From Minisyncoccota bacterium (GTDB lineage Archaea > Nanobdellota > Nanobdellia > Pacearchaeales > GW2011-AR1): a stretch of DNA of 64,000 bases. The stretch is from the NCBI GenBank assembly GCA_035453125.1, contig DAOTCN010000002.1, positions 289,993 to 353,992 of the forward strand, given 5' to 3'. Positions within the stretch are counted from its first letter, which is position 1. Each line of letters starts with the position of its first letter. Under the pieces are notes generated by a model. It searched no databases, had not been told where the DNA came from, and worked only from the letters and a program-made list of their open reading frames with translations. A program made the translations under genes and the position numbers. Below, piece by piece: positions 17,968 to 38,627 of this stretch.

Positions 17968-18040
17968 GCCCGGATAGTGTAGTGGCCTAGCATTCCACCC
18001 TGTCACGGTGGCGACCCGAGTTCAAATCTCGGTCCGGGCG
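17968..18040 (+). tRNA. tRNA-Asp: tRNA-Asp (anticodon GUC), integration target
   Basis: GCCCGGA-TA-GTGT-AGTGGCCTA-GCAT-T-CCACC-CTGTCAC-GGTGG-CGAC-CCGAG-TTCAAAT-CTCGG-TCCGGGC-G is a complete cloverleaf with no intron. Confidence 0.92.
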
Positions 18041-18041
18041 T
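18021..18041 (+). repeat. attL core (3' end of tRNA-Asp)
   Basis: Identical to 34157-34177. Confidence 0.85.
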
Positions 18042-18088
18042 TCCAGAAAGAGCTAAAACCTTAAAAAGAACATTTAATAGTTTCTTTT

Positions 18089-19255
18089 ATGGAAAAAGTA
18101 TTAACACATAAGAGATATTCAGAGAACAGTCTTGTAAATGTAGGCAATTGGAAAGTCAGCAATAAAGAAAAGACTTCTGTAAAACAATATGTTCAAGATT
18201 ATGAAAATGGAAAGATAACTGGTAATATAGGAACAAATCCAAAAGCATTAATTGAAAGACTTCTTGGTTATCAAAAAATATTTTTAGAAAATATAAATAA
18301 AGATAATCCTACAAAGAAAGATATAGAATTATTTGTAGAATATGTTTTAAAGGATAAAATATGTTTTGAGCATTATAATCAAGAAACAAAAAAAAGAACA
18401 AAAAGACCTTATGCTTTAAAGAGTAAAAAAGCAATCTTTGATAATGCCTCAAAATATCTTAAATGGAAATTTCCAAATAAACTTGAACTTATTGAACCAT
18501 TAAAAATAAAAATTAAAACAAAGAAACCAGATCCAGAATCATTAACAGAACAAGAAATTGATAAGCTAAGAATTAATGCTGGAGATATAGAAAATAGAAC
18601 AACAATTTCAATTCTTTATGGTGCAGGCTGTAGAGCTGAAGAATTTTATAATATTCGATTTTCTGATGTGGAATTACCTAAGGGTAATGAAATGTTTGTT
18701 AAATTGAGATTAAGAAATGAGTTTTCAAAAACAGAGGGAAGAACAATCTCTCTTTATTATAAATATTGTCTTGAAGACTTGAGAGAATTAATTGAATTGA
18801 GAAAGAATGAAGGTTGTAAACCTGAAGAACCAATTTTTAAAAAGAGGTATAAAAGTCAAAGAGATTGGTTGATTAATCTTGGAAAGAAAACACTTAATAA
18901 ACGAATATATTTTCATATATTTAGAAGCAGTTGTGCTACAGTATTATCAAATAGACTTAACAGACAGCAACTTTGCATCTATTTTGGTTGGAAATTTAAT
19001 TCTCCTATGCCTGATGTTTATATTAAAAGGGATGGTGTGGATATGAAAGATGTTGATAATACTTTTAAGGCAACAGAATTTGAAGCATTAAAAAACCAAT
19101 TAGAAATTGAAAAACAAAAAAGAGCTTTAAAAGAAGAAGAATATACTGATAAGATGAAGAAGTTACAAGATTCAATTGGGCATATTACTTCTTTAATTGA
19201 TAACTATAAAGAACAATTACCTCAAAATCAAAAAGTGATTTCTGTAAAAAAGTAA
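18089..19255 (+). CDS. int: Tyrosine recombinase/integrase (gene remains intact in the integrated state)
   Basis: Catalytic-region contexts GCRAEEFYNIRFSDV (Arg), HIFRSSCATVL (HxxR) and PDVYIKRD (Tyr). It lies adjacent to the tRNA att site. Confidence 0.8.
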   Translation: MEKVLTHKRYSENSLVNVGNWKVSNKEKTSVKQYVQDYENGKITGNIGTNPKALIERLLGYQKIFLENINKDNPTKKDIELFVEYVLKDKICFEHYNQETKKRTKRPYALKSKKAIFDNASKYLKWKFPNKLELIEPLKIKIKTKKPDPESLTEQEIDKLRINAGDIENRTTISILYGAGCRAEEFYNIRFSDVELPKGNEMFVKLRLRNEFSKTEGRTISLYYKYCLEDLRELIELRKNEGCKPEEPIFKKRYKSQRDWLINLGKKTLNKRIYFHIFRSSCATVLSNRLNRQQLCIYFGWKFNSPMPDVYIKRDGVDMKDVDNTFKATEFEALKNQLEIEKQKRALKEEEYTDKMKKLQDSIGHITSLIDNYKEQLPQNQKVISVKK

Positions 19256-19342
19256 TATTAAAAATACAATTACTTGTTATTTTGTTTCTTAGGGTAATTG
19301 GACTGATTTAGACTAATCAGTTTAAACATCCATTCTATGTTT

Positions 19343-19876
19343 TCATCTTGTTGAGTTTCTAATTGTTTTTTCGTTTGCAATATTTTTAATTTTTTCATCT
19401 AACCAAGAATTAAATTCCTCTTTTCCAATTTTTGAGTCAATAAATTGTTGATTAAGATAGCTTATTAACTCTTCTTTTGAATCAGTTATATTTTTAACTA
19501 GAATATTTTTATTTAAGCTTACTTTAATTTCTTTCATTCCCTTATCACTTTTTCCTTTTGTTAATGTAATTAACTTATAATCTTGCAGTAATTTTATATG
19601 ATCATGTATTGTTGAATAAGAATATCCTAAAATTTTTTTTAATTGTAATAGGTTTAAAGGTTTTAAAGAAACGATTTGTATAATATCTACTCTTGGTCCC
19701 CCACCCAAAATTCTTGCAATTTCTTCAGATTTTTGCTTGTAGAATCCAGAAATATTTGACAAGTTTAATCTCTCAAATACATCCATAAATTCTGATTCTT
19801 TATGTTTAATAGTTGAACAAGAGTATACATTATGGGAGTAATCAATCAAGAGTGTCATTGAGTCTATTTCTTTCAT
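19343..19876 (-). CDS. Winged-helix (ArsR-like) regulator of the element
   Basis: LNLLQLKKILGYSYSTIHDHIKLLQDYKLITL is an HTH-wing pattern. The gene is divergent from the element's plus-strand operon. Confidence 0.55.
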   Translation of the reverse strand: MKEIDSMTLLIDYSHNVYSCSTIKHKESEFMDVFERLNLSNISGFYKQKSEEIARILGGGPRVDIIQIVSLKPLNLLQLKKILGYSYSTIHDHIKLLQDYKLITLTKGKSDKGMKEIKVSLNKNILVKNITDSKEELISYLNQQFIDSKIGKEEFNSWLDEKIKNIANEKTIRNSTR

Positions 19877-19990
19877 ATTCTAATATATTTAGATTAATAT
19901 ATAAATGTATCGTTTAAACCTTCACAATAGAAACATTTATATATTAGTATTAAATTGTAATTGTATCGTATTAGGGCTTACAGTTTAAAA

Positions 19991-20182
19991 ATGCAAACAC
20001 AACAACTAATCAATGAAGAAATTGACTTCGAGAAAATGAAAGATGATTTAAGGATTATCCAAAATTTTCTATTGTTAATACTCAAAGAAAAAGATCCTGT
20101 AAAATATTGCCAGATAATAGACAAAGCCAACAACCGAGAAAGCCCCACTGAAGGGACTAATACTAATTTGGAGGAAAAATGA
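19991..20182 (+). CDS. Hypothetical small protein
   Basis: ORF only. ATG 19991 is preferred over TTG 19961. Confidence 0.3.
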   Translation: MQTQQLINEEIDFEKMKDDLRIIQNFLLLILKEKDPVKYCQIIDKANNRESPTEGTNTNLEEK

Positions 20183-20438
20183 ACAACAAAAAAAACTTTC
20201 AGAAGTGTGTTGTAAAAAAACAAAAAGAAGGTAAGAACTTAACGAAAGCTAAGAAAGAGTGTTCGAACCAAGACACTCTTTAAAGTTTCATATAAACAAA
20301 AATGAAAAAAGATAATCAGCTTATTAAGTGTGAACAACCAAATCTCTTTCAAAAATTAAGAGATATTGTAATAAGTACATTCGAAAAAAAAGACACTAAA
20401 AACCTAAACTCTAATTCTCAAAAAGAGGCAATTTAACT

Positions 20439-20804
20439 ATGGAAAACTCAAATATTAGCTTAAATCATAATGAAGAAGAAATTAATCAAAAATTAATAAC
20501 TAAAAACTTAACCTTAAACGACTTGCATAACTATCTGAACCTTAAATTTCAAGATTACAGACAGGCAGGACAAGTTGCCAATATTTCTGAATGCAGAGTT
20601 AGACAAATCTTAATCGGTTACCGTATACCCAAATCTGCAAAGTTAATTAGACAAATTGCACATGGGTGGGAAATTGATGAAGTTAAACTTGCTCAACTTT
20701 TTGAAAGAATTAGTTACAATCAAAGTGAAGCCATCAAAGAACTAAGAGAAGTTATTTGCCCATCTAATCCTCATTTGCAAATGTGTAAGGAGGAACAAAA
20801 ATGA
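20439..20804 (+). CDS. Putative HTH DNA-binding protein
   Basis: QAGQVANISECRVRQILIGYRIPK is HTH-like. ATGA stop/start overlap with the next gene. Confidence 0.4.
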   Translation: MENSNISLNHNEEEINQKLITKNLTLNDLHNYLNLKFQDYRQAGQVANISECRVRQILIGYRIPKSAKLIRQIAHGWEIDEVKLAQLFERISYNQSEAIKELREVICPSNPHLQMCKEEQK

Positions 20805-22249
20805 CAAGTCTTGAGGAAGCAAAATATTGGCGGGATAAATTTGTTCTTCAAGAAGAAGGTAGATTATCAAAAGAAGGTTCAGTATTGTTCCTTCAGATTA
20901 GTCCAGATAATTATGATAGAATTATTAATGAAAAAAAGATACCTAAAAAATACTTAGACATATTGGAGGATCCAAACCTATTTGAAAAAATAACTGTTTA
21001 TGAGTTTGATAAAAAGATTGTTGGAGAAATTGAATCAAGAAAAGTTATTTTTTTATGTGCAAATGGTAGATTAGTAAACAATTCTCAAGTAGCTTCATAT
21101 AACTTACTTGTTAATTCTGAAAGTGGTGCAGGTAAAGACTATGAAACAAGTAAAGTTTTAGAAATTTTACCTAAAGAGCAATATATTAAAAAAACAAGAA
21201 TTAGTCCTATGGCGTTTACTTATTGGCATAATTCAACATTTGAACCTGATTGGACATGGAATGGCAAAGTCTTTTATTGTGAAGATATAAGTGAAAGTAT
21301 TCTTAACTCAGATGTTTTTAAAGTAATGTGTTCTAATGGTAGTTCGGCAACAATAGTCATTAAACAAAAAGCATATGAAATAGAAATTAATGGAAAACCA
21401 GTAATAATAACAACAACTGCAACAGCAAATCCAAATCCAGAAGCTATTAGAAGAAATGTCTTATTGCAACTTGATGAAAGTGTTAATCAAACAAAAGAGA
21501 TTATGAAACGACATGCAGAATTTAAAAAAAGAGGAATTATGCCAGAGTATAATCAAGATTTGATAGAGGCACAAAAATTTCTAGAAAGAGTAAATGTAAA
21601 AATACCATTTGCGGATTTGTTATGTTCTTATTTTCCAGAGGAAAATATTATAATGAGAACAAATTTTCCAAGGTTTTTAGATTTTATATCTGCTTCAACT
21701 GCATTGTATCAGTTTCAAAGAAAAAAAGATTATGATGGTTTTGTTTTATCCGAAGGAAGAGATTATAGTATAGCAAGAGAGTGTTTTCTCAAATTGTTTA
21801 GTAATAAATATATGATTCCTCTAACAAGAAATCAAAGACAAATATTAAGTTTTTTTAATGAAATCCCTACACTAAAAGGTTCTGTTTCTCAGTTATATAA
21901 CAGTCATGGAATTAATTTTATTAGTGACAGAGCATTAGAAACTAATCTAAAAACATTAGTGAGATATGGTATACTAACTAGTGCAATTGACAAAGATGTA
22001 TTAAATAGAGATATTGTTGTTTATTTTCTTAATAAAAGTTACTCACTTAATGAAACATTGAACTTACCTAAATTTGAAGAGATAATTAGAAATGCTTCGG
22101 AATCTTCAGTTTCTTCTATAACTTCTATAACTTCTTTATCTTCGATAACAAATAGTTTAGTTAGAGATGTAGAAGATATCGAAGTTAGCGAAGGCTTAAT
22201 TTGCATAGAAGAAATTAAACAAAAACCAAAAGGAGAAATAAAATGCTAG
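20801..22249 (+). CDS. Putative replication protein: P-loop NTPase (SF3-helicase-like) with a C-terminal winged-helix-like region
   Basis: Walker A-like NSESGAGKDYETSK, Walker B-like KVFYCEDISE, motif-C-like VIITTTATANP. It is the largest ORF of the element's core operon. Confidence 0.45.
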   Translation: MTSLEEAKYWRDKFVLQEEGRLSKEGSVLFLQISPDNYDRIINEKKIPKKYLDILEDPNLFEKITVYEFDKKIVGEIESRKVIFLCANGRLVNNSQVASYNLLVNSESGAGKDYETSKVLEILPKEQYIKKTRISPMAFTYWHNSTFEPDWTWNGKVFYCEDISESILNSDVFKVMCSNGSSATIVIKQKAYEIEINGKPVIITTTATANPNPEAIRRNVLLQLDESVNQTKEIMKRHAEFKKRGIMPEYNQDLIEAQKFLERVNVKIPFADLLCSYFPEENIIMRTNFPRFLDFISASTALYQFQRKKDYDGFVLSEGRDYSIARECFLKLFSNKYMIPLTRNQRQILSFFNEIPTLKGSVSQLYNSHGINFISDRALETNLKTLVRYGILTSAIDKDVLNRDIVVYFLNKSYSLNETLNLPKFEEIIRNASESSVSSITSITSLSSITNSLVRDVEDIEVSEGLICIEEIKQKPKGEIKC

Positions 22250-22425
22250 ACAAAACAAAAAATGAAATGAAGAAGTATAGGTGTAATAATTGTAAACATG
22301 AAATATGGATGAGTAAGGTACCTTTCTTTTGCACTAATTGTGAGGGGTATTATACTTTTGAATTAATAGAATTGAAAGGAGGTCAAAAAGATCAAAATGG
22401 AGCAAATGAATATTACTCAGACTAA
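22243..22425 (+). CDS. Small zinc-ribbon protein
   Basis: CNNCKHEIW...CTNCEG. Overlaps both neighbouring genes. Confidence 0.45.
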   Translation: MLDKTKNEMKKYRCNNCKHEIWMSKVPFFCTNCEGYYTFELIELKGGQKDQNGANEYYSD

Positions 22426-22633
22426 AGTTGATGATAAATCTTGGGGTAGTTTGTGGCTTGTAAAAGAAAAGAAAACTGTAAAGTCACCTGATTTGTCTGG
22501 AGAAGCAAAAATTGGAAATCAGAGATTTAAATTAGCAGTTTGGAAAAACTTTGATAGATCAAATAACAAACCCGATTATAAGATTTGTCTAAGTAAGTTT
22601 GAACCTAGTCAAAAAGAAGCTGAGTTAAATTAA
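22397..22633 (+). CDS. Hypothetical small protein
   Basis: ORF within the operon; beta-rich sequence (GSLWLVKEKK..SPDLSGEAKIGNQRFKLAVWKN). Confidence 0.4.
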   Translation: MEQMNITQTKVDDKSWGSLWLVKEKKTVKSPDLSGEAKIGNQRFKLAVWKNFDRSNNKPDYKICLSKFEPSQKEAELN

Positions 22634-22652
22634 ACAAAACCTTTGTAAAAAA

Positions 22653-23414
22653 ATGAAAACTAATCAAATTAAAAGTAAAGATAAACCCATCTCCTTTACA
22701 AGAGCATACAAAATGTTTGGTGTTTTTAATGGGATTCAATTAGAAAAAGAAATTGTAGAGGCTAGAAAGAATATTGCTCAGTTTAATCAGCATAAAGATG
22801 AAATATTTCAAAAAATAGAATTTCTAAATCAGGAAAATTTTAAGCTAATTGAAGGAAATAATTTGTTAAATCAAGACATAGAAAATCTTAAGGAAATTAG
22901 GATGCATGAATCAAAAAAATTAAGAGAAGATTATGAATACAAGTTTAATCTCATCTCATCAGATAATGAAAGATTAATTAGAGAGAATAAAGAAAAGGAT
23001 ATAGAAATTGCAAGTTTGAAATGTAAATTTTTAAGTGAAGAAGAAAAATATAAAGATTTGGAAGAAGAGTTCAAAGATTTTATTTTAGTAGAATATTTTA
23101 AAGGTGTTAATGATGAGAGCCTTAAAGATGAAGAATTGTCTATGCTTTTGAGAATGGTTAAAGTATACAAGAAAGGAGAATTAAAATCTATTGAAAAAGA
23201 AGAACATGGAAACATAATGGATAATCTTTTCAGTGAAGAATATGTTAAGAGTGAAACTTGTTATTGCGGAGCTACTAAATCTTATGGAAGCCGTTCCTGT
23301 GAAGGATGTCGCGTCAAAGCTGATCGATATCGGAAGAGATATGGCATAAACATGTTTGAAGCATGGAAAAATATTTGGAAAAATATAGGAAATATTAGGA
23401 ATTTTGATGTATAA
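22653..23414 (+). CDS. Coiled-coil protein with a C-terminal Cys-rich (zinc-binding?) tail
   Basis: Long heptad-like K/E-rich centre. C-terminal CYCGATKSYGSRSCEGC. Confidence 0.4.
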   Translation: MKTNQIKSKDKPISFTRAYKMFGVFNGIQLEKEIVEARKNIAQFNQHKDEIFQKIEFLNQENFKLIEGNNLLNQDIENLKEIRMHESKKLREDYEYKFNLISSDNERLIRENKEKDIEIASLKCKFLSEEEKYKDLEEEFKDFILVEYFKGVNDESLKDEELSMLLRMVKVYKKGELKSIEKEEHGNIMDNLFSEEYVKSETCYCGATKSYGSRSCEGCRVKADRYRKRYGINMFEAWKNIWKNIGNIRNFDV

Positions 23415-23440
23415 GTTATCAAAAACGAGCAAGCTATAAA

Positions 23441-23800
23441 ATGAGGAACATAAAAACAATAATCCGAACATATCCCAATGGAAAATCAATAGTTGTATCT
23501 CAAGATCTTTCTTGGAAATCTCAGTATTTAAGTTTAATAAGTGGGCTAAGAAGTAGAAACAGAGATTTCTTTACAGCTACTGAACTTATGTACCTAACAG
23601 GGGATAAAAGACCAGTTGTTGTAAGTCGTTTGAATACTTTAGTCAAAAATAAATGGATTAAACCCTTTGTAACAAATAAATGTAAGATCTTTGATAGAAC
23701 AGTTTATGTCAGAAATCAAGAAAAATTTAATAAATTTATTGATAAGTATCAATCTTTTTGTTCTGACTGTTCTCCATTTATGAATAAAAATCAGAGTTAA
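23441..23800 (+). CDS. Hypothetical protein (possible wHTH)
   Basis: FFTATELMYLTGDKRPVVVSRLNTLVKNKWI is weakly HTH-like. Confidence 0.35.
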   Translation: MRNIKTIIRTYPNGKSIVVSQDLSWKSQYLSLISGLRSRNRDFFTATELMYLTGDKRPVVVSRLNTLVKNKWIKPFVTNKCKIFDRTVYVRNQEKFNKFIDKYQSFCSDCSPFMNKNQS

Positions 23801-23833
23801 TGAACAATTAAATTTATCAATCAAAAAGAAAAA

Positions 23834-24169
23834 ATGCCATCAAAAGAACACGAACAAAAAATAGAAGAAATTGATAGAGAAATAAAATCAAGAGGAATGC
23901 ACTGGAAGACTAAAAAGAATTATCCTATTTGGTTACATAAAGAGAATAGTTGGGGTCAAATTGATCTTGTAGGATTTAAGAGGGAAGAACCAATGTCTCC
24001 TGCAATGATTGATGCTTTTGAGATAGAAGAACGAAACTCTGCTGGACAAATCTCTAGAAACTTAGAAAAATTAGAGCAAATTAAAAAAATGACTCCTATA
24101 AATATTAAAGTTCGTACATGTCAATTAAAGTCTAATGAAGATCATAAAAAGGTGTGTATAAGAAAATGA
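23834..24169 (+). CDS. Hypothetical protein (possible PD-(D/E)xK-like nuclease fold)
   Basis: GQIDLVGF ... IDAFEIEE pattern only; weak. Confidence 0.3.
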   Translation: MPSKEHEQKIEEIDREIKSRGMHWKTKKNYPIWLHKENSWGQIDLVGFKREEPMSPAMIDAFEIEERNSAGQISRNLEKLEQIKKMTPINIKVRTCQLKSNEDHKKVCIRK

Positions 24170-24684
24170 AAGTTGTAATATATCTAAGAGTTAGTACAAT
24201 AGACCAAACAACACTGAATCAAGAATTAGAATTGAAATCCTATTGTGAAAGAAACAATTATGAAATTTTTAAGGTCTACAAAGATGAAGGAGTATCTGGA
24301 TCAAAAACATCAAGACCACAATTAGATTTAATGTTGCAAGATATGAGGAATAAGCTCTTTGATGCAGTTATTGTTTGGAAATTTGATAGATTAGGAAGAA
24401 GCACTTCTCATTTATTACAAGTTTTGGAAGAGATGAAAAATAAAGGAGTTAGATTAATAGCAACCTCTCAAAATATTGATACAGAAACTCCCATGGGTAA
24501 ATTCTTTTTTACTATACTTTCAGGTTTTGCAGAGATGGAAAGAGAAATGATTAAGGAAAGAATATTGCTTGGATTAAAGAGAAGAAAGCAACAAGGAAAA
24601 AGTCTTGGAAGACCAAACGGAGCTAAAGATAAAGGAAGACGGAAAAAAGGTGGTTATTATTTAAGATATAAAAAGAGTAAATAA
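24166..24684 (+). CDS. Small serine recombinase (resolvase/invertase catalytic domain; no canonical C-terminal HTH)
   Basis: VVIYLRVSTIDQ (catalytic Ser), GVSGSKTSRPQLDLML and VVWKFDRLGRS. The C-terminus is only a short basic tail, GRRKKGGYYLRYKKSK. ATGA overlap with the upstream ORF. Confidence 0.8.
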   Translation: MKVVIYLRVSTIDQTTLNQELELKSYCERNNYEIFKVYKDEGVSGSKTSRPQLDLMLQDMRNKLFDAVIVWKFDRLGRSTSHLLQVLEEMKNKGVRLIATSQNIDTETPMGKFFFTILSGFAEMEREMIKERILLGLKRRKQQGKSLGRPNGAKDKGRRKKGGYYLRYKKSK

Positions 24685-24686
24685 AA

Positions 24687-26240: not shown

Positions 26241-27504
26241 TTTCTATTTCGTATTTTCCAAATACTTCATTTAAAATTGATGATTGAAGCTGAGATATTG
26301 CTAAAATCTTTCTATCTATAAAATTTATTTGTATGTTAATCTCTTTTTCAATTAATTTTAATGTATCAACCATTTTGTTCTGAATTTTTATATCAGGTAA
26401 AGGAATATCAAAATTTTCTATTTGAGATTTTGTTAGAGCTTGTCTAGTTGCTCCAGATTGAATATTCAAGATATTTTTTTGAAACTCTTTTTGAGAAATA
26501 AAATAAGCTAAATAATAAGGATTTAAATCTTGTTTACATCTAATTATAGAAACATGCTGATTAACATTAGCAGGGCAAATATCATCTGGAACAACACATA
26601 CTCTCCCTATAGATGCTCCTGTTATGTTAAGTAAAACATCTTTTTTTTCAACTTTTGTATTTTTCATAATTTGATTTATTTCAGCATCAATAAAAGAAAG
26701 TCCATCTCTGTCAAATGAATTCATGTATACATTCATACTTCTTATAAATGGAATTCCCTGAGTCTTATAAATTCTATAACCTCCTCTCGGAGTTGAACCG
26801 CTTCCGATTTTATTAGTTAAAGTTAAAAGTTTTATTTTTTTAGAATTAACTATTTCTGGAATCTCAAATATTTTTTTAAGATAACTATTCATCATCTCTT
26901 CAATAGACTCTTTTTCTTTTTTTGATTCTTTTTTCATTATCTCTATTTGACTAATTTGTTGGTTAATTTTTGCTACAATATTCCTTTGTACAGAAAGAGG
27001 AGGTAAAAGGATTTTTATTAACTCTAATTTCTTTCTAGTAACTCTTTTTCTTGTAGAACCAGAAGATAAAGAGATTGATTTATTCATAAAAATAGGGGAA
27101 TTTAAATAATAAGATATAAAGGATGAATCTGCAACATTCTTATTTAACTTAAGAATAGAAACATCTACTGCAGTTATAAGAGGGATACCTAATTCTGGAA
27201 CAATACAAGCTCTGCCTATTGGGTCTGGCATTCTTGCAATTAAAATATCTCCAGCATCAATCCAACGAGCATGTATTTCTTCAGCCCTTTTTTTTGTAAT
27301 ATGTCTATCGGAAACATTAAGAAATTCATTAATTCCAATATCTGCTAATTGTATTAATCTAACCTCTTTTTTACTAGACATATCTGAAGATAGAACCCAA
27401 TTTCCATCACTTAATCCTAATTCTGGATTAATGGATATCTCTTTCAAATTACTCCACTTCCAACCTTCAGGTAACTTTTGTTTTTGTATTAATTCTTGTT
27501 TCAT
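26227..27504 (-). CDS. hsdS: Type I restriction-modification system, specificity subunit (two target-recognition domains)
   Basis: Two-fold internal architecture, each half ending in a conserved helix (LPPLSVQRNIVAKI / IPLPDIKIQNKMVDTL). It sits between hsdR and hsdM. Confidence 0.85.
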   Translation of the reverse strand: MKQELIQKQKLPEGWKWSNLKEISINPELGLSDGNWVLSSDMSSKKEVRLIQLADIGINEFLNVSDRHITKKRAEEIHARWIDAGDILIARMPDPIGRACIVPELGIPLITAVDVSILKLNKNVADSSFISYYLNSPIFMNKSISLSSGSTRKRVTRKKLELIKILLPPLSVQRNIVAKINQQISQIEIMKKESKKEKESIEEMMNSYLKKIFEIPEIVNSKKIKLLTLTNKIGSGSTPRGGYRIYKTQGIPFIRSMNVYMNSFDRDGLSFIDAEINQIMKNTKVEKKDVLLNITGASIGRVCVVPDDICPANVNQHVSIIRCKQDLNPYYLAYFISQKEFQKNILNIQSGATRQALTKSQIENFDIPLPDIKIQNKMVDTLKLIEKEINIQINFIDRKILAISQLQSSILNEVFGKYEIENDQK

Positions 27505-29964: not shown

Positions 29965-29987
29965 CAAATAATTAAGGGTTTTAGTTT

Positions 29988-31724: not shown

Positions 31725-31872
31725 ACCTGTTCACAAATTGTTATTCATTCTTTTAGTTAAAAAAACATAGTAAACCTTGTGTTTAGAATTTACCCAATTT
31801 AGAAACATTCTTATACATTTGATGGGTATAATCTAATATGGTAAAAGACAATGAAAGAAAGAGTATAATAAA

Positions 31873-32499
31873 ATGAAAAAGAGTATTAAGATAATTATTA
31901 TTACAATAGTAGTAATTAGTTTGTTATTGTTAGTTGGTTTCATTATTATGAATAATCAATTTGCCTATAATAATTCAATCATTAGTATAAAAATAGGAAA
32001 TGAAACAATAGCAACTAATATTAATATAATTTCGTTAGGAGAAATAAAGATTGCCTACTGTAATACTAATCAAGATAGTTATGAATGTTTTTTTGAAGGT
32101 GTTGTTAAAGTTACTCCAAAAGTAAGTAAAAAGTTTGCAGAAATAACTTCACAACTTGAAGTAGATTATCAGAATCCTTCATACTTTGATTCAAAAGGAA
32201 ATCCAGTATTTATACTTACTGAACCTCAACTTTATGATTCAGAAGGAAAACCTGTTTATATAACTCCTCAGGTAGATTATAGTAAATACAAAAAAGAATT
32301 TCATTTAAGTGAGGCTTTACATTTCTATTTAGATAATGAACCACTTAGTTCCCAATTCATTCCAGAAAATATGAAGAATACTGAACAAAGTTCTTTTATT
32401 TTTTTTGGGAGTAGTGTTGCAAAAACTAGAGATGAAGCAATTAATTTAATACAAGTAAAAGTGGATAGATTAAAACATATTCATATTGGAGAAGTTTGA
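31873..32499 (+). CDS. Membrane-anchored/secreted hypothetical protein
   Basis: N-terminal TM segment KIIIITIVVISLLLLVGFIIM. Confidence 0.45.
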   Translation: MKKSIKIIIITIVVISLLLLVGFIIMNNQFAYNNSIISIKIGNETIATNINIISLGEIKIAYCNTNQDSYECFFEGVVKVTPKVSKKFAEITSQLEVDYQNPSYFDSKGNPVFILTEPQLYDSEGKPVYITPQVDYSKYKKEFHLSEALHFYLDNEPLSSQFIPENMKNTEQSSFIFFGSSVAKTRDEAINLIQVKVDRLKHIHIGEV

Positions 32500-32511
32500 T
32501 ATTAAATTAAA

Positions 32512-32904
32512 ATGAAACAAAAAAATAATACTCTTATGTTACCTATTTTTATTGTTCTTATTGTTATTGCTCTTGCTTTATGTTTGCTTGTAGTAAATAA
32601 CTTATTCTTGGCAAGAAGTACACAAATCACTGCACAAATAATCAATACTGAAAAGCCAGAATGTGGAGATGCTGTTGCAGAATGTTATCTTAGCTGTTTA
32701 AAAAAATTAACAATCAATTCAGCAAAAGAATGCATTGCAAAAAAATGTAGGGAAGAACAAATCAAATATTGTTCTATTCAAGATGCCCTAAATTCAAGGT
32801 TTATGAATACAAAAATGTGTGAAAGGTCGTGTAGTCCTGAATGTAAATATGATTGTTTAGATAATAAAAATGAATTAACTTGCCTTAGGAATTGTGTCGT
32901 ATAA
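32512..32904 (+). CDS. Small membrane-anchored Cys-rich protein
   Basis: TM segment LPIFIVLIVIALALCLLVV followed by 12 Cys in about 85 aa. Confidence 0.45.
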   Translation: MKQKNNTLMLPIFIVLIVIALALCLLVVNNLFLARSTQITAQIINTEKPECGDAVAECYLSCLKKLTINSAKECIAKKCREEQIKYCSIQDALNSRFMNTKMCERSCSPECKYDCLDNKNELTCLRNCVV

Positions 32905-32908
32905 TAAG

Positions 32909-33175
32909 ATGAACACTAAAATAATCCTTATGGTTTTTATTGCACTTCTCTTAGTCTTTGACACAATAGCATTAAGCGTGGTAGCTCTACAAGTAAAACC
33001 AACACTAACCACAACCCAAACAACCACACAACCTATTCAAGAAACATTATCTACAAGTCAACAGAAGGTCAAGATTGTGCAGGAAACGAGTGAGGAAGTC
33101 TTAGAACCTACTAAAGAAAAACTAAGTGATACAGCTGTTGTAACCTTAAGTGTTAATGTTCTAAAAAGGAAGTAG
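32909..33175 (+). CDS. Small membrane-anchored Thr/Gln-rich protein
   Basis: MNTKIILMVFIALLLVF TM segment followed by a TTTQTTTQP linker. ATG 32909 is preferred over GTG 32894. Confidence 0.4.
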   Translation: MNTKIILMVFIALLLVFDTIALSVVALQVKPTLTTTQTTTQPIQETLSTSQQKVKIVQETSEEVLEPTKEKLSDTAVVTLSVNVLKRK

Positions 33176-33213
33176 TGCTATACATTTAAATAAAAGTTAA
33201 GACTTATGCTTTT

Positions 33214-34104
33214 ATGAAAAGTGGGTTGATAGTATTAGTTTTAGGTGTGTTCTTAATGGTTTTTATGATTGGAAGTGTGAGTGCAAATTATTGTTTTGAT
33301 GAAAAAGAAAATGAAGTACATTTTCATGGTACAATTCCAAATATAGTTAGTAATAATCTTAATATTCAAAGCATTTCTACCATTACTGTGTGTAACAGAA
33401 ACCTTAACTTAATATTTATTCCAACTTTTTCTGAATATATAAGTGCAAAGAGTTCTAGTAATCATGAAATTTATTTAAATCATGATTTACAAATTGACTA
33501 TAATGGAAAATATTTCAGAGGTTACTTTACAGGATTTTCATCATATAGACAAATGAATAATTTAGATGAATATTTTATAAGAATTTATCCTGTTTTGTAT
33601 AGTTATGATAACGTCACATGGTATAGTATTGAAGAAAGTTATGATAAAATTGAAGGATATATTAACATTATTCTTTATGTAAATAGTTCTTCTAATGAAA
33701 TAATAATGGGTAATTCTAGAATTGAGGATTTTATAACAGTTATTAAGGGGAATAATCAAGAACAGCGTCTCACAGCACTTGAATCATTTCAACAAACACT
33801 TAACAATACAATAACCTCCTTTCAAACAACTATCACAACAATTCTAACAACATTAAACACACTTACAACAAAAGTAGATAATCAAGAAACAAGATTAACA
33901 GCTCTTGAAAATAAACCAATTCCAACAGATAATTCAATTATACCTAATTACTTCAAATATCTAAGTCAAACTGATAGGAAATCAATGTTATGTGGTTATG
34001 CAGAAGATAGTCATTTAACAACTATTACAGACCTTGGAATGAATTGTAATTTAACTTATACTCCTTACTCAAGAGGAGAAAGGGTTTCTTGTAAGTGTAA
34101 GTAA
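33214..34104 (+). CDS. Secreted protein with a coiled-coil stalk (repeated QE(Q/T)RLTALE motif) and a Cys-containing C-terminus; possible spike/fibre-like protein
   Basis: Signal LIVLVLGVFLMVFMIGSVSA. NQEQRLTALESFQQTLNNTITSFQTTITTILTTLNTLTTKVDNQETRLTALENK. It is the last gene before attR. Confidence 0.45.
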   Translation: MKSGLIVLVLGVFLMVFMIGSVSANYCFDEKENEVHFHGTIPNIVSNNLNIQSISTITVCNRNLNLIFIPTFSEYISAKSSSNHEIYLNHDLQIDYNGKYFRGYFTGFSSYRQMNNLDEYFIRIYPVLYSYDNVTWYSIEESYDKIEGYINIILYVNSSSNEIIMGNSRIEDFITVIKGNNQEQRLTALESFQQTLNNTITSFQTTITTILTTLNTLTTKVDNQETRLTALENKPIPTDNSIIPNYFKYLSQTDRKSMLCGYAEDSHLTTITDLGMNCNLTYTPYSRGERVSCKCK

Positions 34105-34156
34105 AATTAGTTTTTGTTTTAGATAATATTCCTCTTTCTGTGTTTTTCTAACCTTC

Positions 34157-34177
34157 TTCAAATCTCGGTCCGGGCGT
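34157..34177 (+). repeat. attR core (21/21 copy of the tRNA-Asp 3' end)
   Basis: ttcaaatctcggtccgggcgt is identical to 18021-18041. Confidence 0.85.
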
Positions 34178-34182
34178 AATTT

Positions 34183-34199
34183 TCTTATCGACGATAAGA
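34183..34199. repeat. Perfect palindrome tcttatcg-a-cgataaga immediately after attR
   Basis: 8-bp arms read directly from the sequence. Confidence 0.8.
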
Positions 34200-34212
34200 G
34201 TTTTGTGATTTT

Positions 34213-34254
34213 TCCGGGCGTTGAACCATATTTTTTGTTGTTTTAGTTCAACGC
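34213..34254. repeat. Second att-core remnant (tccgggcgtt, 10/10) overlapping a 9-bp-stem hairpin (gcgttgaac / gttcaacgc)
   Basis: 34213-34222 matches 18033-18042. The stems lie at 34218-34226 and 34246-34254. Confidence 0.6.
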
Positions 34255-34271
34255 TGGGGTTGGGAGTTAAA

Positions 34272-35021
34272 CTATCTTTTTGCTATTTTCCAAAGAACTT
34301 CAAAATACTTTTTAAATGAATCAAAAACAGGCTTACTTTCAATTAAAATAGCTAAAGGATTGGTTGGTTCTAAGATAAAGATAAGAACTTTATTAGTATA
34401 TATCTCTGTGCTTGTTGGCATTTCCATCTCTTTTGGTAAAAACCTAAATTCAGTATGAGCTAAATGCTTTCTTTTTTTATAAAGAGAAATATACTTTTCA
34501 TTTAATAAATGCTTATGTACAATTCCTTTTTTTGCTCTTTCTTCATGTTTTTTATTAAAATAAACTTCCCAAGATTCTGGTTGTTCTGTCAAACCCATTG
34601 AGAGCCATTCTTCCCCTCTTTTTAAGCTATTAAGAATATCATCCTCTACTGTTTTCAATCCTTCCCAACCAGTATAGATTTTAACTTCAGACTTTGGAGC
34701 TTGTTTTTGTTTTAAAATAAGTTGTGGAATTATTTTAATTATATCTTTTTTTTCATAATCTATTTGCTGTTTTTTTTCATCTAGATAATTAAGTATTCTT
34801 TCAGGACTTGCTGCTTCAAAGTATTTAACATTATTCTTAATTGTTAAATTAACTAAACCTTTGTCTATTAATCTATTAAGAACTTCATATACTTTTGAGC
34901 CAGATATTTTAGATTTTTTAGTTATATTCCATGTTGTTGAGGAACCTAATTCCAGCAAAGCAAAATATATTTTGATTTCCCCATCTGTTAAGCCAATAGT
35001 CTTTAATGTTTGGTTTATCAT
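34272..35021 (-). CDS. TrmB-family transcriptional regulator
   Basis: N-terminal LKTIGLTDGEIKIYFALLELGSSTTWNITKKSKISGSKVYEVLNRLIDKGLV and a C-terminal effector-like domain. Confidence 0.75.
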   Translation of the reverse strand: MINQTLKTIGLTDGEIKIYFALLELGSSTTWNITKKSKISGSKVYEVLNRLIDKGLVNLTIKNNVKYFEAASPERILNYLDEKKQQIDYEKKDIIKIIPQLILKQKQAPKSEVKIYTGWEGLKTVEDDILNSLKRGEEWLSMGLTEQPESWEVYFNKKHEERAKKGIVHKHLLNEKYISLYKKRKHLAHTEFRFLPKEMEMPTSTEIYTNKVLIFILEPTNPLAILIESKPVFDSFKKYFEVLWKIAKR

Positions 35022-35064
35022 ATCGTATAAGGGGGGGAATAATGTTTATAAACATTTAGTTTTA

Positions 35065-35517
35065 ATGGCTTTTATGACAAGAGAAGAAAATGAAACCATA
35101 AAAGAAGAATACTCGCTTAGAGGACAACCAGTGATAAATCTATTTAATCATAATTGGAATCCTGAAGTAGATGGTAAGCTTAAAGCATTTGTAAGATTAG
35201 GGTATGACTCTTTCTCAAAAGACCCTTTTTTCTTTCCAAATTTAGCAAGTTTTGATTCTTTACATCTTGTAAAAGAACGGTCGGAATCTTGTGGTAGATA
35301 CGGAAGTGGAACATATGGAAATGACACAGACTTAGTCTTATGTGGGGGTTCATTAGTATACATTAGTTATGATAGTATTAATCCAGATTTTAACATTCCC
35401 ATAGAAAATTCAACATGTAGAATACTTCTTTTTGCTGAAAATGGTTCTAATGCAGTAATTACGAGAGGAAGATTAGAGGAAATTTGTGGGCAAAGTTTAG
35501 AAACGAGGAAAAAATAA
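35065..35517 (+). CDS. Hypothetical protein (150 aa), first gene of a coupled pair
   Basis: ATG 35065 was chosen because the track ORF start at 34861 runs antisense through the TrmB gene. No recognisable motif. Confidence 0.45.
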   Translation: MAFMTREENETIKEEYSLRGQPVINLFNHNWNPEVDGKLKAFVRLGYDSFSKDPFFFPNLASFDSLHLVKERSESCGRYGSGTYGNDTDLVLCGGSLVYISYDSINPDFNIPIENSTCRILLFAENGSNAVITRGRLEEICGQSLETRKK

Positions 35518-36117
35518 ATGACAATACCAACAAGTGAATGGAAAACAATTGGAAGACCTGGATGGTTTGGAGAAGATAGAGACAGAGTCCTTGCTGAATA
35601 TGATAAAAAATATGGAAAAGGAAATTGGAGAATAAGACATAAATTAGGACCAAGAACTTTAGATTTTAATCAAGCAGTGCAACTTTATGAATTATCTTAT
35701 GAATTAGATTTTAATCATCCTGACAGAAGATATATTTGGAATGATTTAATAAAAAGAGCAAGAGATGTTTGGACAGAACAATTAACAGATATAGACTCTG
35801 GAACTGACTACTCTATTCAGTTAGCTCCTGCTGCACATTATGAAGATATTGCTATAAGAAGAATTTTAGATAAATATGGTTTAAAATTTGAAGGACAAGA
35901 ATTAGTTAGAATAAGGGCAGATAGTGAAGATTTAGCAGGAAAAGTACTAAGTTCAATACATATTCCTTTTATTTATCCAGATTATATTGAGGGTTCATTG
36001 GATGATTCAATGCCTTGGTGGGACAGACATAAAGGTTCTTTAGAGTGTTTTTGGCATTTAAATAAAATTTTACAAGTAAGACCAGTATATAATGAACATT
36101 TTAATAATCGGTTTTAA
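35518..36117 (+). CDS. Hypothetical protein (199 aa, W/R/D-rich), translationally coupled to the upstream ORF
   Basis: The ATG directly abuts the upstream TAA (35515-35517). No recognisable motif. Confidence 0.5.
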   Translation: MTIPTSEWKTIGRPGWFGEDRDRVLAEYDKKYGKGNWRIRHKLGPRTLDFNQAVQLYELSYELDFNHPDRRYIWNDLIKRARDVWTEQLTDIDSGTDYSIQLAPAAHYEDIAIRRILDKYGLKFEGQELVRIRADSEDLAGKVLSSIHIPFIYPDYIEGSLDDSMPWWDRHKGSLECFWHLNKILQVRPVYNEHFNNRF

Positions 36118-36122
36118 AATAA

Positions 36123-36461
36123 TTATTTTTTTCTTTTAAGTCTAAGCTTTCTTCTAATGTCTTCTTCTTTTTCAAGATTTGCTCTATAACCCCTAATAGG
36201 TTTAGTATCATAACTTGTTGGATGAGGATAATTACTTATTCTAACTTCTTGAACTAATTGAGTATCAACCCAATTTTCAATTAATTCATAAACCTCGTTA
36301 GAAGAGTAAATACATCCAAAACACTTATCTCTAGGAGTTCCAGCCGATATAGCTGAAGGATGATAATAAATCTCTGGATTTTCTTTAGTTAAATCATATA
36401 CGGTTCTTAGTATTGCAATCCTTGCTTCTCTAAATACTGTACCATTATGTTTTCTTTTCAT
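36123..36461 (-). CDS. Hypothetical protein (112 aa) with a basic C-terminal tail
   Basis: ATG 36459-36461 lies 1 nt after the upstream stop. The track's TTG start at 36482 was rejected. Confidence 0.4.
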   Translation of the reverse strand: MKRKHNGTVFREARIAILRTVYDLTKENPEIYYHPSAISAGTPRDKCFGCIYSSNEVYELIENWVDTQLVQEVRISNYPHPTSYDTKPIRGYRANLEKEEDIRRKLRLKRKK

Positions 36462-36462
36462 T

Positions 36463-36807
36463 TTAATGCTCTCCAAATTCAACTTTTATTGGAGGAGTTA
36501 TTCTATATAAAACTACTTCGGATGGGTCTGTAATCGGAAATAGCTGAGCCTGTTCCATTGCCCTAAATTTGTCCCATTGTTCTGAACTCCAGTGAGGATA
36601 AGCTCTATATTCTAAAATAGTTGATTTAGGTGTTTGATGTACATTTAATAAGTGAAAGTTTGGTGTATCTTTTAAATAATATTCTTTGAGGTCATCAAGT
36701 CCACACTTTGTGACAGATTTCCATCTAGTTAAACATCTAGGTAGGATGCCCTCTCTTTTTGATTCAACCATATAAGGCATAGTTTGAATGTCTGTTATTC
36801 TTTCCAT
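36463..36807 (-). CDS. Hypothetical protein (114 aa)
   Basis: ORF only; first gene of the minus-strand pair. Confidence 0.4.
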   Translation of the reverse strand: MERITDIQTMPYMVESKREGILPRCLTRWKSVTKCGLDDLKEYYLKDTPNFHLLNVHQTPKSTILEYRAYPHWSSEQWDKFRAMEQAQLFPITDPSEVVLYRITPPIKVEFGEH

Positions 36808-36906
36808 TTTAATCTTGTTCTTTACATTTATAGCTGTTATTTTGTATATACCTCGCTTTTTAAGCTTTTCTATTTATTGTAACTTAGAAGTAGTTAACTT
36901 ATAATA

Positions 36907-36972
36907 CTTTTTACCACACGAGGAAATTGTCTATAAGTTAAACCTAAGGTTTAACTAACGGTCCGGGCGTTC
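36907..36972 (+). repeat. Left copy of a long direct repeat (ctttttaccaca..aggaaattgt..gttaaacc-taa-ggtttaac-taa + att core cggtccgggcgttc)
   Basis: Aligns with 38540-38627. Contains an 8-bp-stem hairpin and a 14/14 match to 18030-18043. Confidence 0.8.
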
Positions 36973-37150
36973 TTGATATTGAACTTGGTGAAATATCAAT
37001 ATATTCTGGATTTTTGATTTGAACGAGGAGAGTTCAAATACTTCAATTCATTGTTTTTAGAATTAAAGTTACCAAAAATCTGCAGGATTTTTTAGTACTC
37101 AGTCCGGGCGTATTACCCTCTACTTTTTAAATAGTAAATGTAAAGGGTAA
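36973..37150. repeat. Cluster of hairpins and further tRNA-Asp 3'-end fragments
   Basis: ttgatatt/aatatcaa (36973-36999). atttgaac/gttcaaat (37017-37039), which includes gagttcaaat = 18018-18027. gtccgggcgt at 37102-37111 = 18032-18041. ttaccct/agggtaa (37113-37150). Confidence 0.65.
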
Positions 37151-37165
37151 GATTTATAAAGATGT

Positions 37166-37197
37166 ATAAATTATACAGAATTAGGATAAATTATACA
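37166..37197 (+). promoter_or_regulatory. Candidate operator: 12-bp direct repeat ataaattataca x2, 20 bp apart, upstream of the AbiEi-like gene
   Basis: 37166-37177 and 37186-37197 are identical; the second ends 17 nt before the ATG at 37215. Confidence 0.35.
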
Positions 37198-37214
37198 CTA
37201 TTTTATAGGTAAAT

Positions 37215-37760
37215 ATGAAAAAAGCAAAAAAAACACAAATAGCTAAAAGGATAAGAAAATTTAAAGGAATTTCTCCTGCTGAAGTAGAAGTAATCTCTTG
37301 GCTTGAATTTTATCAAAAATATTTCTTTACTTCTGAAGATATAATGCAGTTCTTTAGCAGTAAAAATACTCTTTATAGAGGGATACAAAAAATGCTGGCA
37401 AAAAAAAGAATAATTAAACTTAATCAAAATAAATATTATCTTATCCCAATAAAAGCTAAGTCTGGTGGTTGGGTAGAAGAGGATTTTATAGTTATAGATG
37501 AAGTATGCAATTCAGAAGAATACTATATTGGGGGTTGGGCAGCAGTTAATTATTGGAGATTTACAGATCAAATACCTTTTTGGTGTGATGTTTATACAAC
37601 AAATAAACGAGGTAGAAGAAAAATATTAAATGTAGGGATTATATTCCATCAAGTTAGAAAAATTGATAAATCCAAATATGTTATAGAAAAAATTAAGGGG
37701 CATGAATTTAAAATACTGAATAAGAGGGAATCAAAAAAATGGATGAAATCAAGGCAATAA
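37215..37760 (+). CDS. AbiEi-like antitoxin / wHTH transcriptional regulator (type IV TA)
   Basis: N-terminal wHTH-like region. It sits immediately upstream of the AbiEii-like nucleotidyltransferase and overlaps it by 22 nt. Confidence 0.6.
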   Translation: MKKAKKTQIAKRIRKFKGISPAEVEVISWLEFYQKYFFTSEDIMQFFSSKNTLYRGIQKMLAKKRIIKLNQNKYYLIPIKAKSGGWVEEDFIVIDEVCNSEEYYIGGWAAVNYWRFTDQIPFWCDVYTTNKRGRRKILNVGIIFHQVRKIDKSKYVIEKIKGHEFKILNKRESKKWMKSRQ

Positions 37761-38518
37761 GCGAATTAGACTTTAATGATATTGTTGCAAGAACAGGATT
37801 TAATAAAGATAAATTAAGAAAGGATTATTATCTTACTTTAATTTTATACTTGATTAGAGATATAGATAGCATTTATTTTAAAGGTGGAACTGCTTTAAAT
37901 AAAATATTCTTGAATTATGCAAGATTATCTGAGGATTTGGACTTTTCCTTAACAAGAAATGAAAAAGAAATAAAACATGAAATATCAAATATTTTAACTG
38001 ATTTACCCTTTGTTAAAGATATTACAGAAGGTAAAAATGTAGATGGTTTCTTAAGAATGATAATAAAATGTAAGTCTGAAATAGGAGAAAGTGAAATATT
38101 TATAGATTTAAATCAAAGAGCTAAGCTTCTACGAAAACCAGAAAGTTATGAAATTAAACATTTTTATGAACCATTTATACCAAAATTTTCCATAAAAACT
38201 ATTGCAAAAGAAGAGCTAATTGCTGAAAAGGTTGCAGCCACAATAAGAAGAAATAAACCAAGAGACCATTATGATGTTTACAAAATTATTCATCAAAGTA
38301 TTTCAATAAATCTAGAACTTGTAAAAAAGAAATGTCATGAATCAGGAGATGACTTTTCAATTCTTAAAATGTTCAATAAAGCAAAAATGCTGAAGAATAG
38401 ATGGGATAAAGATATTACCTCACTTATTGCAGAACCAGTTTCATTTAAAGAAGTCATGCAATTATTAGCAAAACACTTTAAATTAAACGAAGAGAAAGAA
38501 AAGAGTAAAAATAAGTAA
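37739..38518 (+). CDS. AbiEii/AbiGii-family nucleotidyltransferase toxin (DUF1814)
   Basis: Family signature FKGGTALNKIFLNYARLSEDLDFS. The size (259 aa) and gene pairing fit this family. Confidence 0.8.
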   Translation: MDEIKAISELDFNDIVARTGFNKDKLRKDYYLTLILYLIRDIDSIYFKGGTALNKIFLNYARLSEDLDFSLTRNEKEIKHEISNILTDLPFVKDITEGKNVDGFLRMIIKCKSEIGESEIFIDLNQRAKLLRKPESYEIKHFYEPFIPKFSIKTIAKEELIAEKVAATIRRNKPRDHYDVYKIIHQSISINLELVKKKCHESGDDFSILKMFNKAKMLKNRWDKDITSLIAEPVSFKEVMQLLAKHFKLNEEKEKSKNK

Positions 38519-38539
38519 TATTTCAGTTATTCATTAATG

Positions 38540-38627
38540 CTTTTTACCACAACATTTGTTATATTCTGGAGCTTTAGGAAATTGTATCAAAGTTAAACCT
38601 AAGGTTTAACTAATAATCCTGGCATTC
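38540..38627 (+). repeat. Right copy of the long direct repeat (with a ~22-bp insertion and a degenerate att core taatcctggcattc)
   Basis: Shares ctttttaccaca, aggaaattgt and gttaaacctaaggtttaactaa with 36907-36972. The att core is 9/14. Confidence 0.75.

Follow-up and report, generated by a model that had tools for sequence, protein, structure and literature searches.

What built the DNA that follows the tRNA-Asp gene of a Pacearchaeota (DPANN) archaeon, where pieces of the 3' end of this tRNA recur in one orientation as far as position 38627? We analyzed a stretch of 64,000 nt of contig DAOTCN010000002.1 (hereafter the window; G+C content 27.6%), whose proteins recur on contigs of up to 754 kb. 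A preliminary description had read the copies as the footprint of successive site-specific integrations, with older elements pushed distally and eroded; we confirmed the observation and found the interpretation partly supported. In our reading, to which we give a probability of roughly 0.7, the region is an island anchored at the tRNA-Asp 3' end and built by repeated site-specific recombination. It comprises an integrated 16.1-kb element, here called E1 (18021-34177), and a downstream chain of four segments that all terminate in a copy of the tRNA end (core), always in the same orientation: a short module B, a cassette with a TrmB-family regulator gene, a short module A, and a cassette with an AbiE gene pair.

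Core copies and the integrated element E1

The target gene and the core copies are as follows.
17968-18040, plus strand: tRNA-Asp(GTC), the integration target (Rfam RF00005, 59.5 bits; ARAGORN 17967-18041)
18021-18041, plus strand: attL core of E1, TTCAAATCTCGGTCCGGGCGT, an exact repeat of 34157-34177
34157-34177, plus strand: attR core of E1, TTCAAATCTCGGTCCGGGCGT, the displaced older tRNA 3' end, 21/21 against 18021-18041
34213-34222, plus strand: core copy TCCGGGCGTT of 10 nt, closing module B
36959-36972, plus strand: core copy CGGTCCGGGCGTTC
37030-37039, plus strand: GAGTTCAAAT, an A+T-rich 10-mer, copy of the T-loop
37098-37111, plus strand: core copy CTCAGTCCGGGCGT, closing module A
38614-38627, plus strand: the most distal and decayed core copy, TAATCCTGGCATTC, 9/14

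All repeats listed in the preliminary description were checked by script and are present letter for letter at these coordinates. The tRNA gene is intact and intron-less, has no encoded CCA, and is the sole tRNA gene of the window. The 21-nt identity block runs from the first T-loop base to 1 nt past the tRNA; because it starts there and continues through the tRNA end, E1 supplies the gene with a new 3' end, and the previous end comes to lie beyond the element.

Comparison with shuffled sequence placed the G+C-rich copies beyond chance. The 9-mer TCCGGGCGT occurs five times, always on the plus strand (18033, 34169, 34213, 36962, and 37103), against 0.00 in 100 shuffles, and such a G+C-rich core is very improbable by chance at the G+C content of the window. 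The 14-mer CTCGGTCCGGGCGT, allowing up to 3 mismatches, was found 4 times against 0.01 expected. Neither GAGTTCAAAT at 37030 nor the copy at 38614 is significant alone: 9-mers resembling GAGTTCAAAT occur elsewhere in the window, and A+T-rich 9-10-mers of the T-loop part (AGTTCAAAT, GTTCAAATC) lie at unrelated sites, which speaks for chance matching in an A+T-rich genome. Both copies are supported by context, the one at 38614 by a 52-nt repeat that it closes in register and that matches 36921-36972 at 85% identity, and the pieces at 37030 and 37098 by being halves of one unit conserved at the tRNA-Asp locus of a relative, L007. Chance as an account of the whole array was ruled out by the five occurrences of TCCGGGCGT on one strand within 20 kb and by the conserved position of copies in L007. 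The copy at 38614 carries 5 mismatches, every one of them G/C to A/T, the change that decay should bring in a genome rich in A+T, and no further core copies were found between 38628 and 40000.

E1 has the features of an integrative element that targets a tRNA gene, namely an intact tRNA gene with a repeat of its 3' end, a recombinase with the R-K-H-R-(H/W)-Y set lying by the att site, and an empty site in a relative. The tRNA-proximal element of the preliminary description is therefore real: it has the 21-nt repeat and the adjacent integrase, and it is absent from the syntenic loci L007 and L182. In L182 (DisA 66% identical), genes for a CDP-OH transferase, tRNA-Asp, a peptidase, and DisA are found, with 1.1 kb between the tRNA and disA, and the tRNA end does not recur within 21 kb; as the flanks are those of the window, this is an empty site. 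L007 shares the flanks, here 3.3 kb apart, has a core-copy array of its own, and is without E1, the TrmB segment, AbiE, and the type IB topoisomerase gene described below; both relatives are distant, with about 55-67% amino acid (aa) identity in flank proteins and slightly different tRNA-Asp sequences. The genes at 34.2-38.6 kb are not conserved residents of the tRNA-Asp locus, because they are absent from both L182 and L007. The finding that would have refuted the preliminary description, these genes at the same position in relatives without att-like repeats, was thus not made.

The genes and interior of E1 are as follows.
18042-34156, plus strand: interior of E1
18089-19255, plus strand: XerA-like tyrosine integrase, 388 aa (PF00589, 4.3e-08), starting 47 nt after attL
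19343-19876, minus strand: helix-turn-helix protein, 177 aa, putative element regulator (weak HTH_20 and HTH_5 matches)
20801-22249, plus strand: 482-aa protein conserved as a core component of the element family, with a putative role in replication (precomputed PF27228 MTBMA_p00010_2nd)
24154-24684, plus strand: small serine recombinase, or resolvase (PF00239, 5.2e-48)
24687-26240, 26227-27504, and 27506-29854, minus strand: hsdM, hsdS, and hsdR, a complete type I restriction-modification cargo (Pfam N6_Mtase, Methylase_S, ResIII, EcoEI_R_C)
30120-31724: 534-aa repeat protein

The catalytic residues of the integrase (R182, K214, H276, R279, W301, and Y311) are invariant in 15 homologues, and its nearest solved structures are archaeal XerA (4a8e and 5hxy), with an NCBIfam score of 45.3 for XerA (cut-off 220). 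No second integrase or integrase fragment was found in the window by six-frame hmmsearch with the family profile, so the earlier statement that only the tRNA-proximal element retains an integrase stands. The open reading frame (ORF) is intact and lies outside the core; the SSV-type arrangement, in which attP lies within the integrase gene and integration splits that gene, is not seen. Terminal inverted repeats of 9 bp were identified in E1, CAGAAAGAG (18044-18052), which begins 2 nt beyond the attL core, and CTCTTTCTG (34132-34140), which stops 16 nt short of the attR core, and inverted repeats also surround the core in L147, L124, L153, and L148. We propose that the integrase would bind these repeats around the core (CTCTTTCTG...core...CAGAAAGAG) and exchange strands within or next to the T-loop. 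Exchange at this site would place the enzyme in the T-loop sublocation class of tRNA-targeting integrases, reportedly distinguished by Williams in 2002. The predicted attP junction of E1 is CTAACCTTC followed by the 21-nt core and TCCAGAAAGAG, and the predicted attB junction is GAGTTCAAATCTCGGTCCGGGCGT followed by AATTTTCTTATCG.

The integrase belongs to a family with the same habit at other loci. The search returned 92 homologues, the few carrying a source name being Pacearchaeota, and we surveyed the family on long contigs and at 80 GTDB loci, taking distances from the archaeal members with upstream sequence. In these members the integrase gene starts 56-380 nt past a tRNA 3' end; the targets are tRNA-Asp (6 further loci), Ser, Arg, Tyr, Thr, Lys, Leu, Glu, Gly, Cys, Trp, and Ile, and the elements carry direct repeats of 12-28 nt of the target tRNA end 4.5-10.7 kb downstream. 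At L001, a Candidatus Pacearchaeota metagenome-assembled genome (MAG) with an identical tRNA-Asp and a syntenic left flank (about 66-70% nt identity), a homologous integrase (29% identity) directly follows the tRNA-Asp. In L098, another Pacearchaeota MAG, a second tyrosine integrase of 424 aa (18744-20089) starts 47 nt past the attR of a tRNA-Glu element; with two integrase-bearing elements in direct succession, the family is seen to include tandem pairs. Full-length members (33-35% identity) also occur in many MAGs labelled Verrucomicrobia or Verrucomicrobiota, including L109, L118, L121, L123, L128, L129, L134, and L142, and no adjacent tRNA was detected at these integrase loci; the occurrences could reflect cross-domain spread or mis-binning.

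Homologues of the 482-aa protein were identified in the integrase-bearing elements L147 (44%) and L169 (31%), with no match in PDB, NCBIfam, or PHROG, and a role in replication is putative. The L098 element has a helix-turn-helix gene at the equivalent position, and homologues of the resolvase were found in the L099 and L150 elements. Within E1, the resolvase gene abuts hsdM, and a restriction-modification module that is phase-variable or moves independently is conceivable. The gene of the 534-aa protein contains a 312-nt tandem duplication (30908-31445; 81-90% identity) at which short-read assemblies break, and L005 ends inside this gene. E1 was rejected as a recognisable virus, since none of 10 E1 proteins had a PHROG match and neither the 482-aa protein nor the integrase family had relatives in IMG/VR; the 21-mer core had no copy there either, and three IMG/VR matches to a 17-mer, inside a giant-virus ORF, are due to chance. 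No conjugation genes were identified in E1.

The chain of modules and cassettes

Downstream of E1, the four segments carry the following features.
34178-34222, plus strand: module B, with palindrome CTTATCG-A-CGATAAG, a 13-nt spacer, and the 10-nt core TCCGGGCGTT
After the module B core, to about 34253: hairpin GCGTTGAAC...GTTCAACGC
34223-36958: cassette 1, with a TrmB-family regulator gene (34272-35021, minus strand; Pfam TrmB, 2.6e-17) and four ORFs without assigned function (35065-35517, plus; 35518-36117, plus; 36123-36482, minus; 36463-36807, minus)
36902-36958: right arm of cassette 1, with palindrome AGTTAAACC-TAA-GGTTTAACT (arm repeat D6)
36973-37097, plus strand: module A (long unit), with hairpin 1 at 36973-36999, hairpin 3 at 37041-37068, and hairpin 4 at 37074-37092
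37016-37039, plus strand: hairpin 2 of module A, GATTTGAAC-GAGGAGA-GTTCAAAT, its right arm being the T-loop copy
37112-38613, plus strand: cassette 2, with hairpin TTACCCT...AGGGTAA (37113-37150), abiEi (37215-37760), abiEii (37739-38518), and right arm (38537-38613)

Both modules were recognized at L007. There, an intron-bearing tRNA-Asp is followed by module A (a 126-nt unit with 73% identity to window 36973-37097), a core (CTCGGTCAGGGCGT) that carries the acceptor variant of L007's own tRNA, a homologue of module B (window 34178-34212; 59% overall, with TTATCGACGATAA identical) after this second core, and a third partial core; further on lie a cassette with a metallophosphoesterase gene, a fourth core, and a second module A, the two A copies being 85.5% identical. 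The order in the window is therefore tRNA-E1-core-B-core-TrmB-core-A-core-AbiE-core and that in L007 is tRNA-A-core-B-core-cargo-core-A'-core, with A and B in opposite order. The second and fourth cores of L007 carry the genome's own tRNA substitution, A for C (TCAGGGCG), and are for this reason either young or kept homogenised. The third core (about 9490-9500, minus strand) keeps the window-type C (GGCGGGCGT), so that the core copies of L007 differ in age or in homogenisation.

These comparisons bear on how the copies in the window are to be ordered. The split copy at 37030/37098 is a regular, conserved feature of module A and not a product of decay. Because module A directly follows the tRNA end in L007, the copy at 36959 with module A looks like a former tRNA end together with its unit; the 36959 core was probably once the tRNA 3' end and has kept its unit beside it, and later insertions would have displaced both from the tRNA. 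The view that older integrations were pushed distally and eroded holds in that the most distal copy is the most decayed and that the region from the tRNA to 38627 is absent in relatives; it fails for the copies at 34213 and 36959/37030/37098, which are not eroded scars of larger elements ordered by age and which terminate the non-coding modules B and A.

The two cassettes share their right ends. The arm at 36902-36972 is 85% identical to that at 38537-38627 over 52 nt, including 2 nt past the core, and with a 22-nt indel allowed the repeat extends to about 55-95 nt; the palindrome AGTTAAACC-TAA-GGTTTAACT is part of this arm and occurs nowhere else in the window. Since 36921-36972 and the end at 38614 share the repeat, both cassettes end in the same arm and core, and the arm sequence AGTTAAACCTAAGGTTTAACTAA forms the arm part of the predicted circle junctions. 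Cassette 1 is absent at the locus in L007 and L182. In cassette 2, AbiEi and AbiEii were annotated with PADLOC (8.2e-17 and 1.6e-36), and homologues of AbiEii reach up to 82% aa identity. The AbiE module (37149-38503) was found with 78-79% nt identity in four other DPANN contexts among unrelated neighbours, a value that exceeds the 67% aa identity of the flank protein DisA to its best homologue. In one of these contexts, L185, the same right-end arm is kept, which indicates that the arm travels with the cassette; elsewhere the module also occurs without att-like repeats. On these grounds the AbiE cassette is a mobile module. In another DPANN genome (L191, about 3213-3270 and 5030-5090, and L192), the AbiEi/AbiEii module (79% nt) lies between perfect inverted repeats of about 50 bp, AACAATGCGCACCACATCTTAAAAGATGTGGTTTGAATGCGCTTGTTTTTT and its reverse complement, which suggests another, transposon-like vehicle for the same cargo.

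The similarity of the arms raises local duplication, by unequal crossing-over or replication slippage between cores, as a source of the distal copies in place of separate foreign integrations. Besides the arms, the likeness of the two A copies of L007 and the tandem identical units at three loci (L087, L089, and L145, described below) would fit such a process. The DNA between the copies is unrelated, with TrmB genes in one interval and AbiE genes in the other, and is absent from relatives at the locus, and the AbiE module occurs with the same arm in the other context of L185. We consider local duplication quite improbable.

Under repeated site-specific recombination, both gene cassettes would have entered by the route used by E1, which their common right-end arm abutting the core suggests. 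Since 5-6 directly repeated cores persist in the chain, any block could be cut out, put back, or moved to another place by an integrase working in trans, and such reordering would explain the opposite order of A and B in the window and L007. Module B and hairpin 1 of module A each have the layout that a collapsed element would show: a core, a left inverted repeat, a few bases, a right inverted repeat, a spacer, and a core. The short modules would then not be random debris, with the remainder of module A a conserved three-hairpin structure. The preliminary description had taken the distal islands, an orphan cassette and an AbiE toxin-antitoxin pair, for remnants or integrase-less cargo mobilisable in trans; that they are integrase-less cassettes, and AbiE mobile, agrees with our findings, and no remnant gene of a larger element was found in them.

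Beyond the island, the left flank encodes a CDP-alcohol phosphatidyltransferase and an M10 peptidase, and the right flank contains disA, a DUF4234 gene, and herA. One further gene occupies the interval from the last core copy to disA.
38740-39843, minus strand: type IB topoisomerase gene (PF01028, 1.2e-16; PDB 6z01 and 2f4q)
This gene, whose product is of poxvirus or bacterial size, is absent at the locus in L007 and L182 and has no homologue among the fetched loci, and its membership in the island is uncertain. The tRNA-Asp has an intron at the canonical position in two relatives, of 63 nt in L007 (9675-9812, minus strand) and 24 nt in L008 (1302-1399, minus strand), and is intron-less in the window, L001 (5268-5340), and L182 (8771-8846). 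Where the tRNA carries an intron, no integrase follows it. Among the intron-less loci, an integrase is present in the window and in L001 and absent from L182.

Hairpin units at DPANN tRNA genes

Module A proved to be one member of a family of hairpin-rich units of 55-140 nt downstream of tRNA genes in four DPANN groups. Each unit opens with an inverted copy of the T-loop of its tRNA, followed by the loop GAGGAGA and the T-loop itself; an insert may come next, and the 3' end of the same tRNA closes the unit. Units were located at the following positions.
Window: 36973-37111
L007: 9535-9675 and 7415-7560, minus strand
L087: 3195-3460
L088: 1-370
L089: 1-560
L093: 126-320
L095: 1022-1140
L097: 1430-1560, minus strand
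L145: 540-850
L146 and L169: units present

The units are often tandem, with identical units side by side in L087, L089, and L145. A 24-mer, GATTTGAACGAGGAGAGTTCAAAT (with flanks GAGATTTGAAC-GAGGAGA-GTTCAAATCTC), was found in 4 GTDB MAGs and 5 metagenome contigs and is identical in MAGs labelled Pacearchaeota, Micrarchaeota, Woesearchaeota, and Nanoarchaeota; where the upstream tRNA of these units could be identified, it was tRNA-Arg or tRNA-Glu. The arms of hairpin 2 vary together with the local T-loop (L146 and L169). Inserts are of two types and are placed precisely where the T-loop copy would meet the T-stem 3' strand: type 1 is a two-hairpin insert, and type 2 is a hairpin whose GA/AG base might fold as a K-turn. 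Regular-expression searches for both types returned mostly noise, and a covariance model (R1) added a few units only, in L089 and L145. With E up to 1, Rfam matched nothing but tRNA in window 17800-39000 and in L087-L089, and thus offered no family for the units; a literature search with the 15-mer GATTTGAACGAGGAG found no paper with the motif and no description of the units. In a survey of loci not selected by the unit motif, an exact 10-nt copy of the tRNA's own 3' end was present within 400 nt downstream of 7 of 76 DPANN tRNAs, with 0 upstream and 0 of 25 for bacterial tRNAs.

In an alignment of five type-1 units, pairing in three helices reaches 93%, with compensatory changes in 10 of 27 pairs, a level reached in 0 of 500 shuffles, with slid controls at 3 or fewer. 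Folding z-scores range from -1.2 to -5.1 and are modest for the window unit (-1.5) and the L007 unit (-1.2). A reading of module A as a tRNA-like cloverleaf or a piece of a split tRNA was rejected: it has no 5' acceptor strand, ARAGORN and Rfam call nothing, and the centroid fold shows only a weak closing helix of 6 bp. A primer-binding site of the long-terminal-repeat type was likewise rejected, the copies being sense-oriented and without CCA.

These findings bring in the main rival for the short modules. The distal short copies (34213; 36959-37111) may be native structured RNA in the tRNA trailer, in which case E1, and perhaps the cassettes, would be the only insertions and would have split and displaced trailer units already there. 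For this speak the position of modules A and B in L007, directly after tRNA-Asp and without cargo; the excess of tRNA-end copies downstream of DPANN tRNAs; the identity of the 24-mer across four DPANN labels; hairpin arms that track the local T-loop; the paired and covarying helices; and G-U pairs on the tRNA-sense strand only. A trailer RNA leaves unexplained the copy of the tRNA end that closes every unit, which is a signature of site-specific insertion, and it sits poorly with units that are tandem and differ in order between relatives, and with gene cassettes lying between the same core copies. No Rfam family covers it, and the alignment behind the helices has 5 sequences. On balance, we judge a native trailer RNA unlikely.

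Several points nonetheless weigh against an island built by repeated recombination. Modules A and B are conserved between genomes (73% and 59%), and in module A the compensatory changes and the restriction of G-U pairs to the tRNA-sense strand fit an RNA function better than a recombination scar. Neither a six-frame scan nor a homologue search revealed a remnant of an integrase or element-family gene in the cassettes, so that their descent from E1-like elements would be hypothetical. The distal cores are short (10-14 nt against 21 nt in E1) and may no longer be substrates, and E1, which had no PHROG match and no relative in IMG/VR, may be plasmid-like or viral. Finally, the 6-7 assemblies of this genome with flank or island genes show one order, with no circular junction, empty site, or rearrangement, and mobility in trans of the integrase-less parts is for this reason something that we infer.

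At two other loci a cassette with a single gene separates a tRNA from a repeated copy of the tRNA end, a Fic gene in L008 and a DUF1232 gene in L098. It is conceivable, although we hold this only tentatively, that DPANN archaea carry an undescribed class of miniature elements at tRNA 3' ends, multiplying in tandem and alternating with cassettes of 1-5 genes. If so, tRNA 3' ends would be integron-like cassette platforms served in trans by XerA-like integrases, and the units would be either minimal recombination sites or small RNAs riding along. As mobile mini-elements or as processed RNAs, the hairpin units would be a new feature of archaeal tRNA loci and would confound both tRNA annotation and island mapping.

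Relation to known systems

Gene acquisition in the tiny genomes of DPANN archaea is little understood, and the locus offers a concrete route: one tRNA 3' end has gathered a full element with type I restriction, an AbiE pair circulating in DPANN (about 79% nt), and a regulator cassette. In outline it resembles an integron, with a proximal integrase, one-directional, promoter-poor cassettes that are each closed by a site, a varying order, and a small palindrome at the end. It differs in that the repeated site is the tRNA 3' end and not attC. The integron candidate was rejected because the integrase is not IntI (TIGR02249 integrase_gron, 18.9 bits against a cut-off of 265) and because the cassettes end in a 21-nt palindrome and a tRNA core, whereas attC sites are imperfect palindromes of 57-141 nt with R''/L''-L'/R' boxes; boxes like GTTRRRY/RYYYAAC stand in reverse order in the arm palindrome.

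Among archaeal elements, those with pNOB8-type integrases, of which the Pyrococcus yayanosii island PYG1 with its flanking 44-bp tRNA-Gln repeats is an example (cited in PMC9897764), are similar to E1: their tyrosine integrase gene is intact, they insert into the 3' part of a tRNA gene, and a partial copy of the tRNA marks the opposite end. E1 differs in its shorter block (21 nt), DPANN host, uncharacterised XerA-like integrase family, and array of further cores.

The TrmB and AbiE cassettes are alike in form to the cis-mobilizable elements (CIMEs) described, along with tandem accretion, for the integrative and conjugative or mobilizable elements of streptococci (PMC5704250). Both are integrase-less segments between direct cores, TrmB between 34213-34222 and 36959-36972 and AbiE between 37098-37111 and 38614-38627. 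Derivation by deletion, which also characterizes CIMEs, is not apparent, the cassettes having no homologue of E1-family core genes; in addition, the island host is archaeal, and no conjugation genes were identified in E1.

Tycheposon islands of Prochlorococcus (Hackl et al., bioRxiv 10.1101/2020.12.28.424599) consist of tyrosine-recombinase elements at tRNA genes, in which successive integrations push older ones deeper; remnants and more partial tRNAs have been reported there, and the cargo includes adaptive and defensive genes. Tycheposons are bacterial, whereas the integrase of the window is XerA-like and archaeal; no relationship of integrase or replication genes was seen, none having been tested, and the hairpin units ending in a core copy have no described counterpart among them. 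The logic of the island nevertheless matches that of bacterial tRNA-anchored islands, both tycheposon islands and CIME accretion, and we class the locus as tandem accretion at a tRNA gene, a structure of known kind, to which the hairpin modules add a new and unexplained component.

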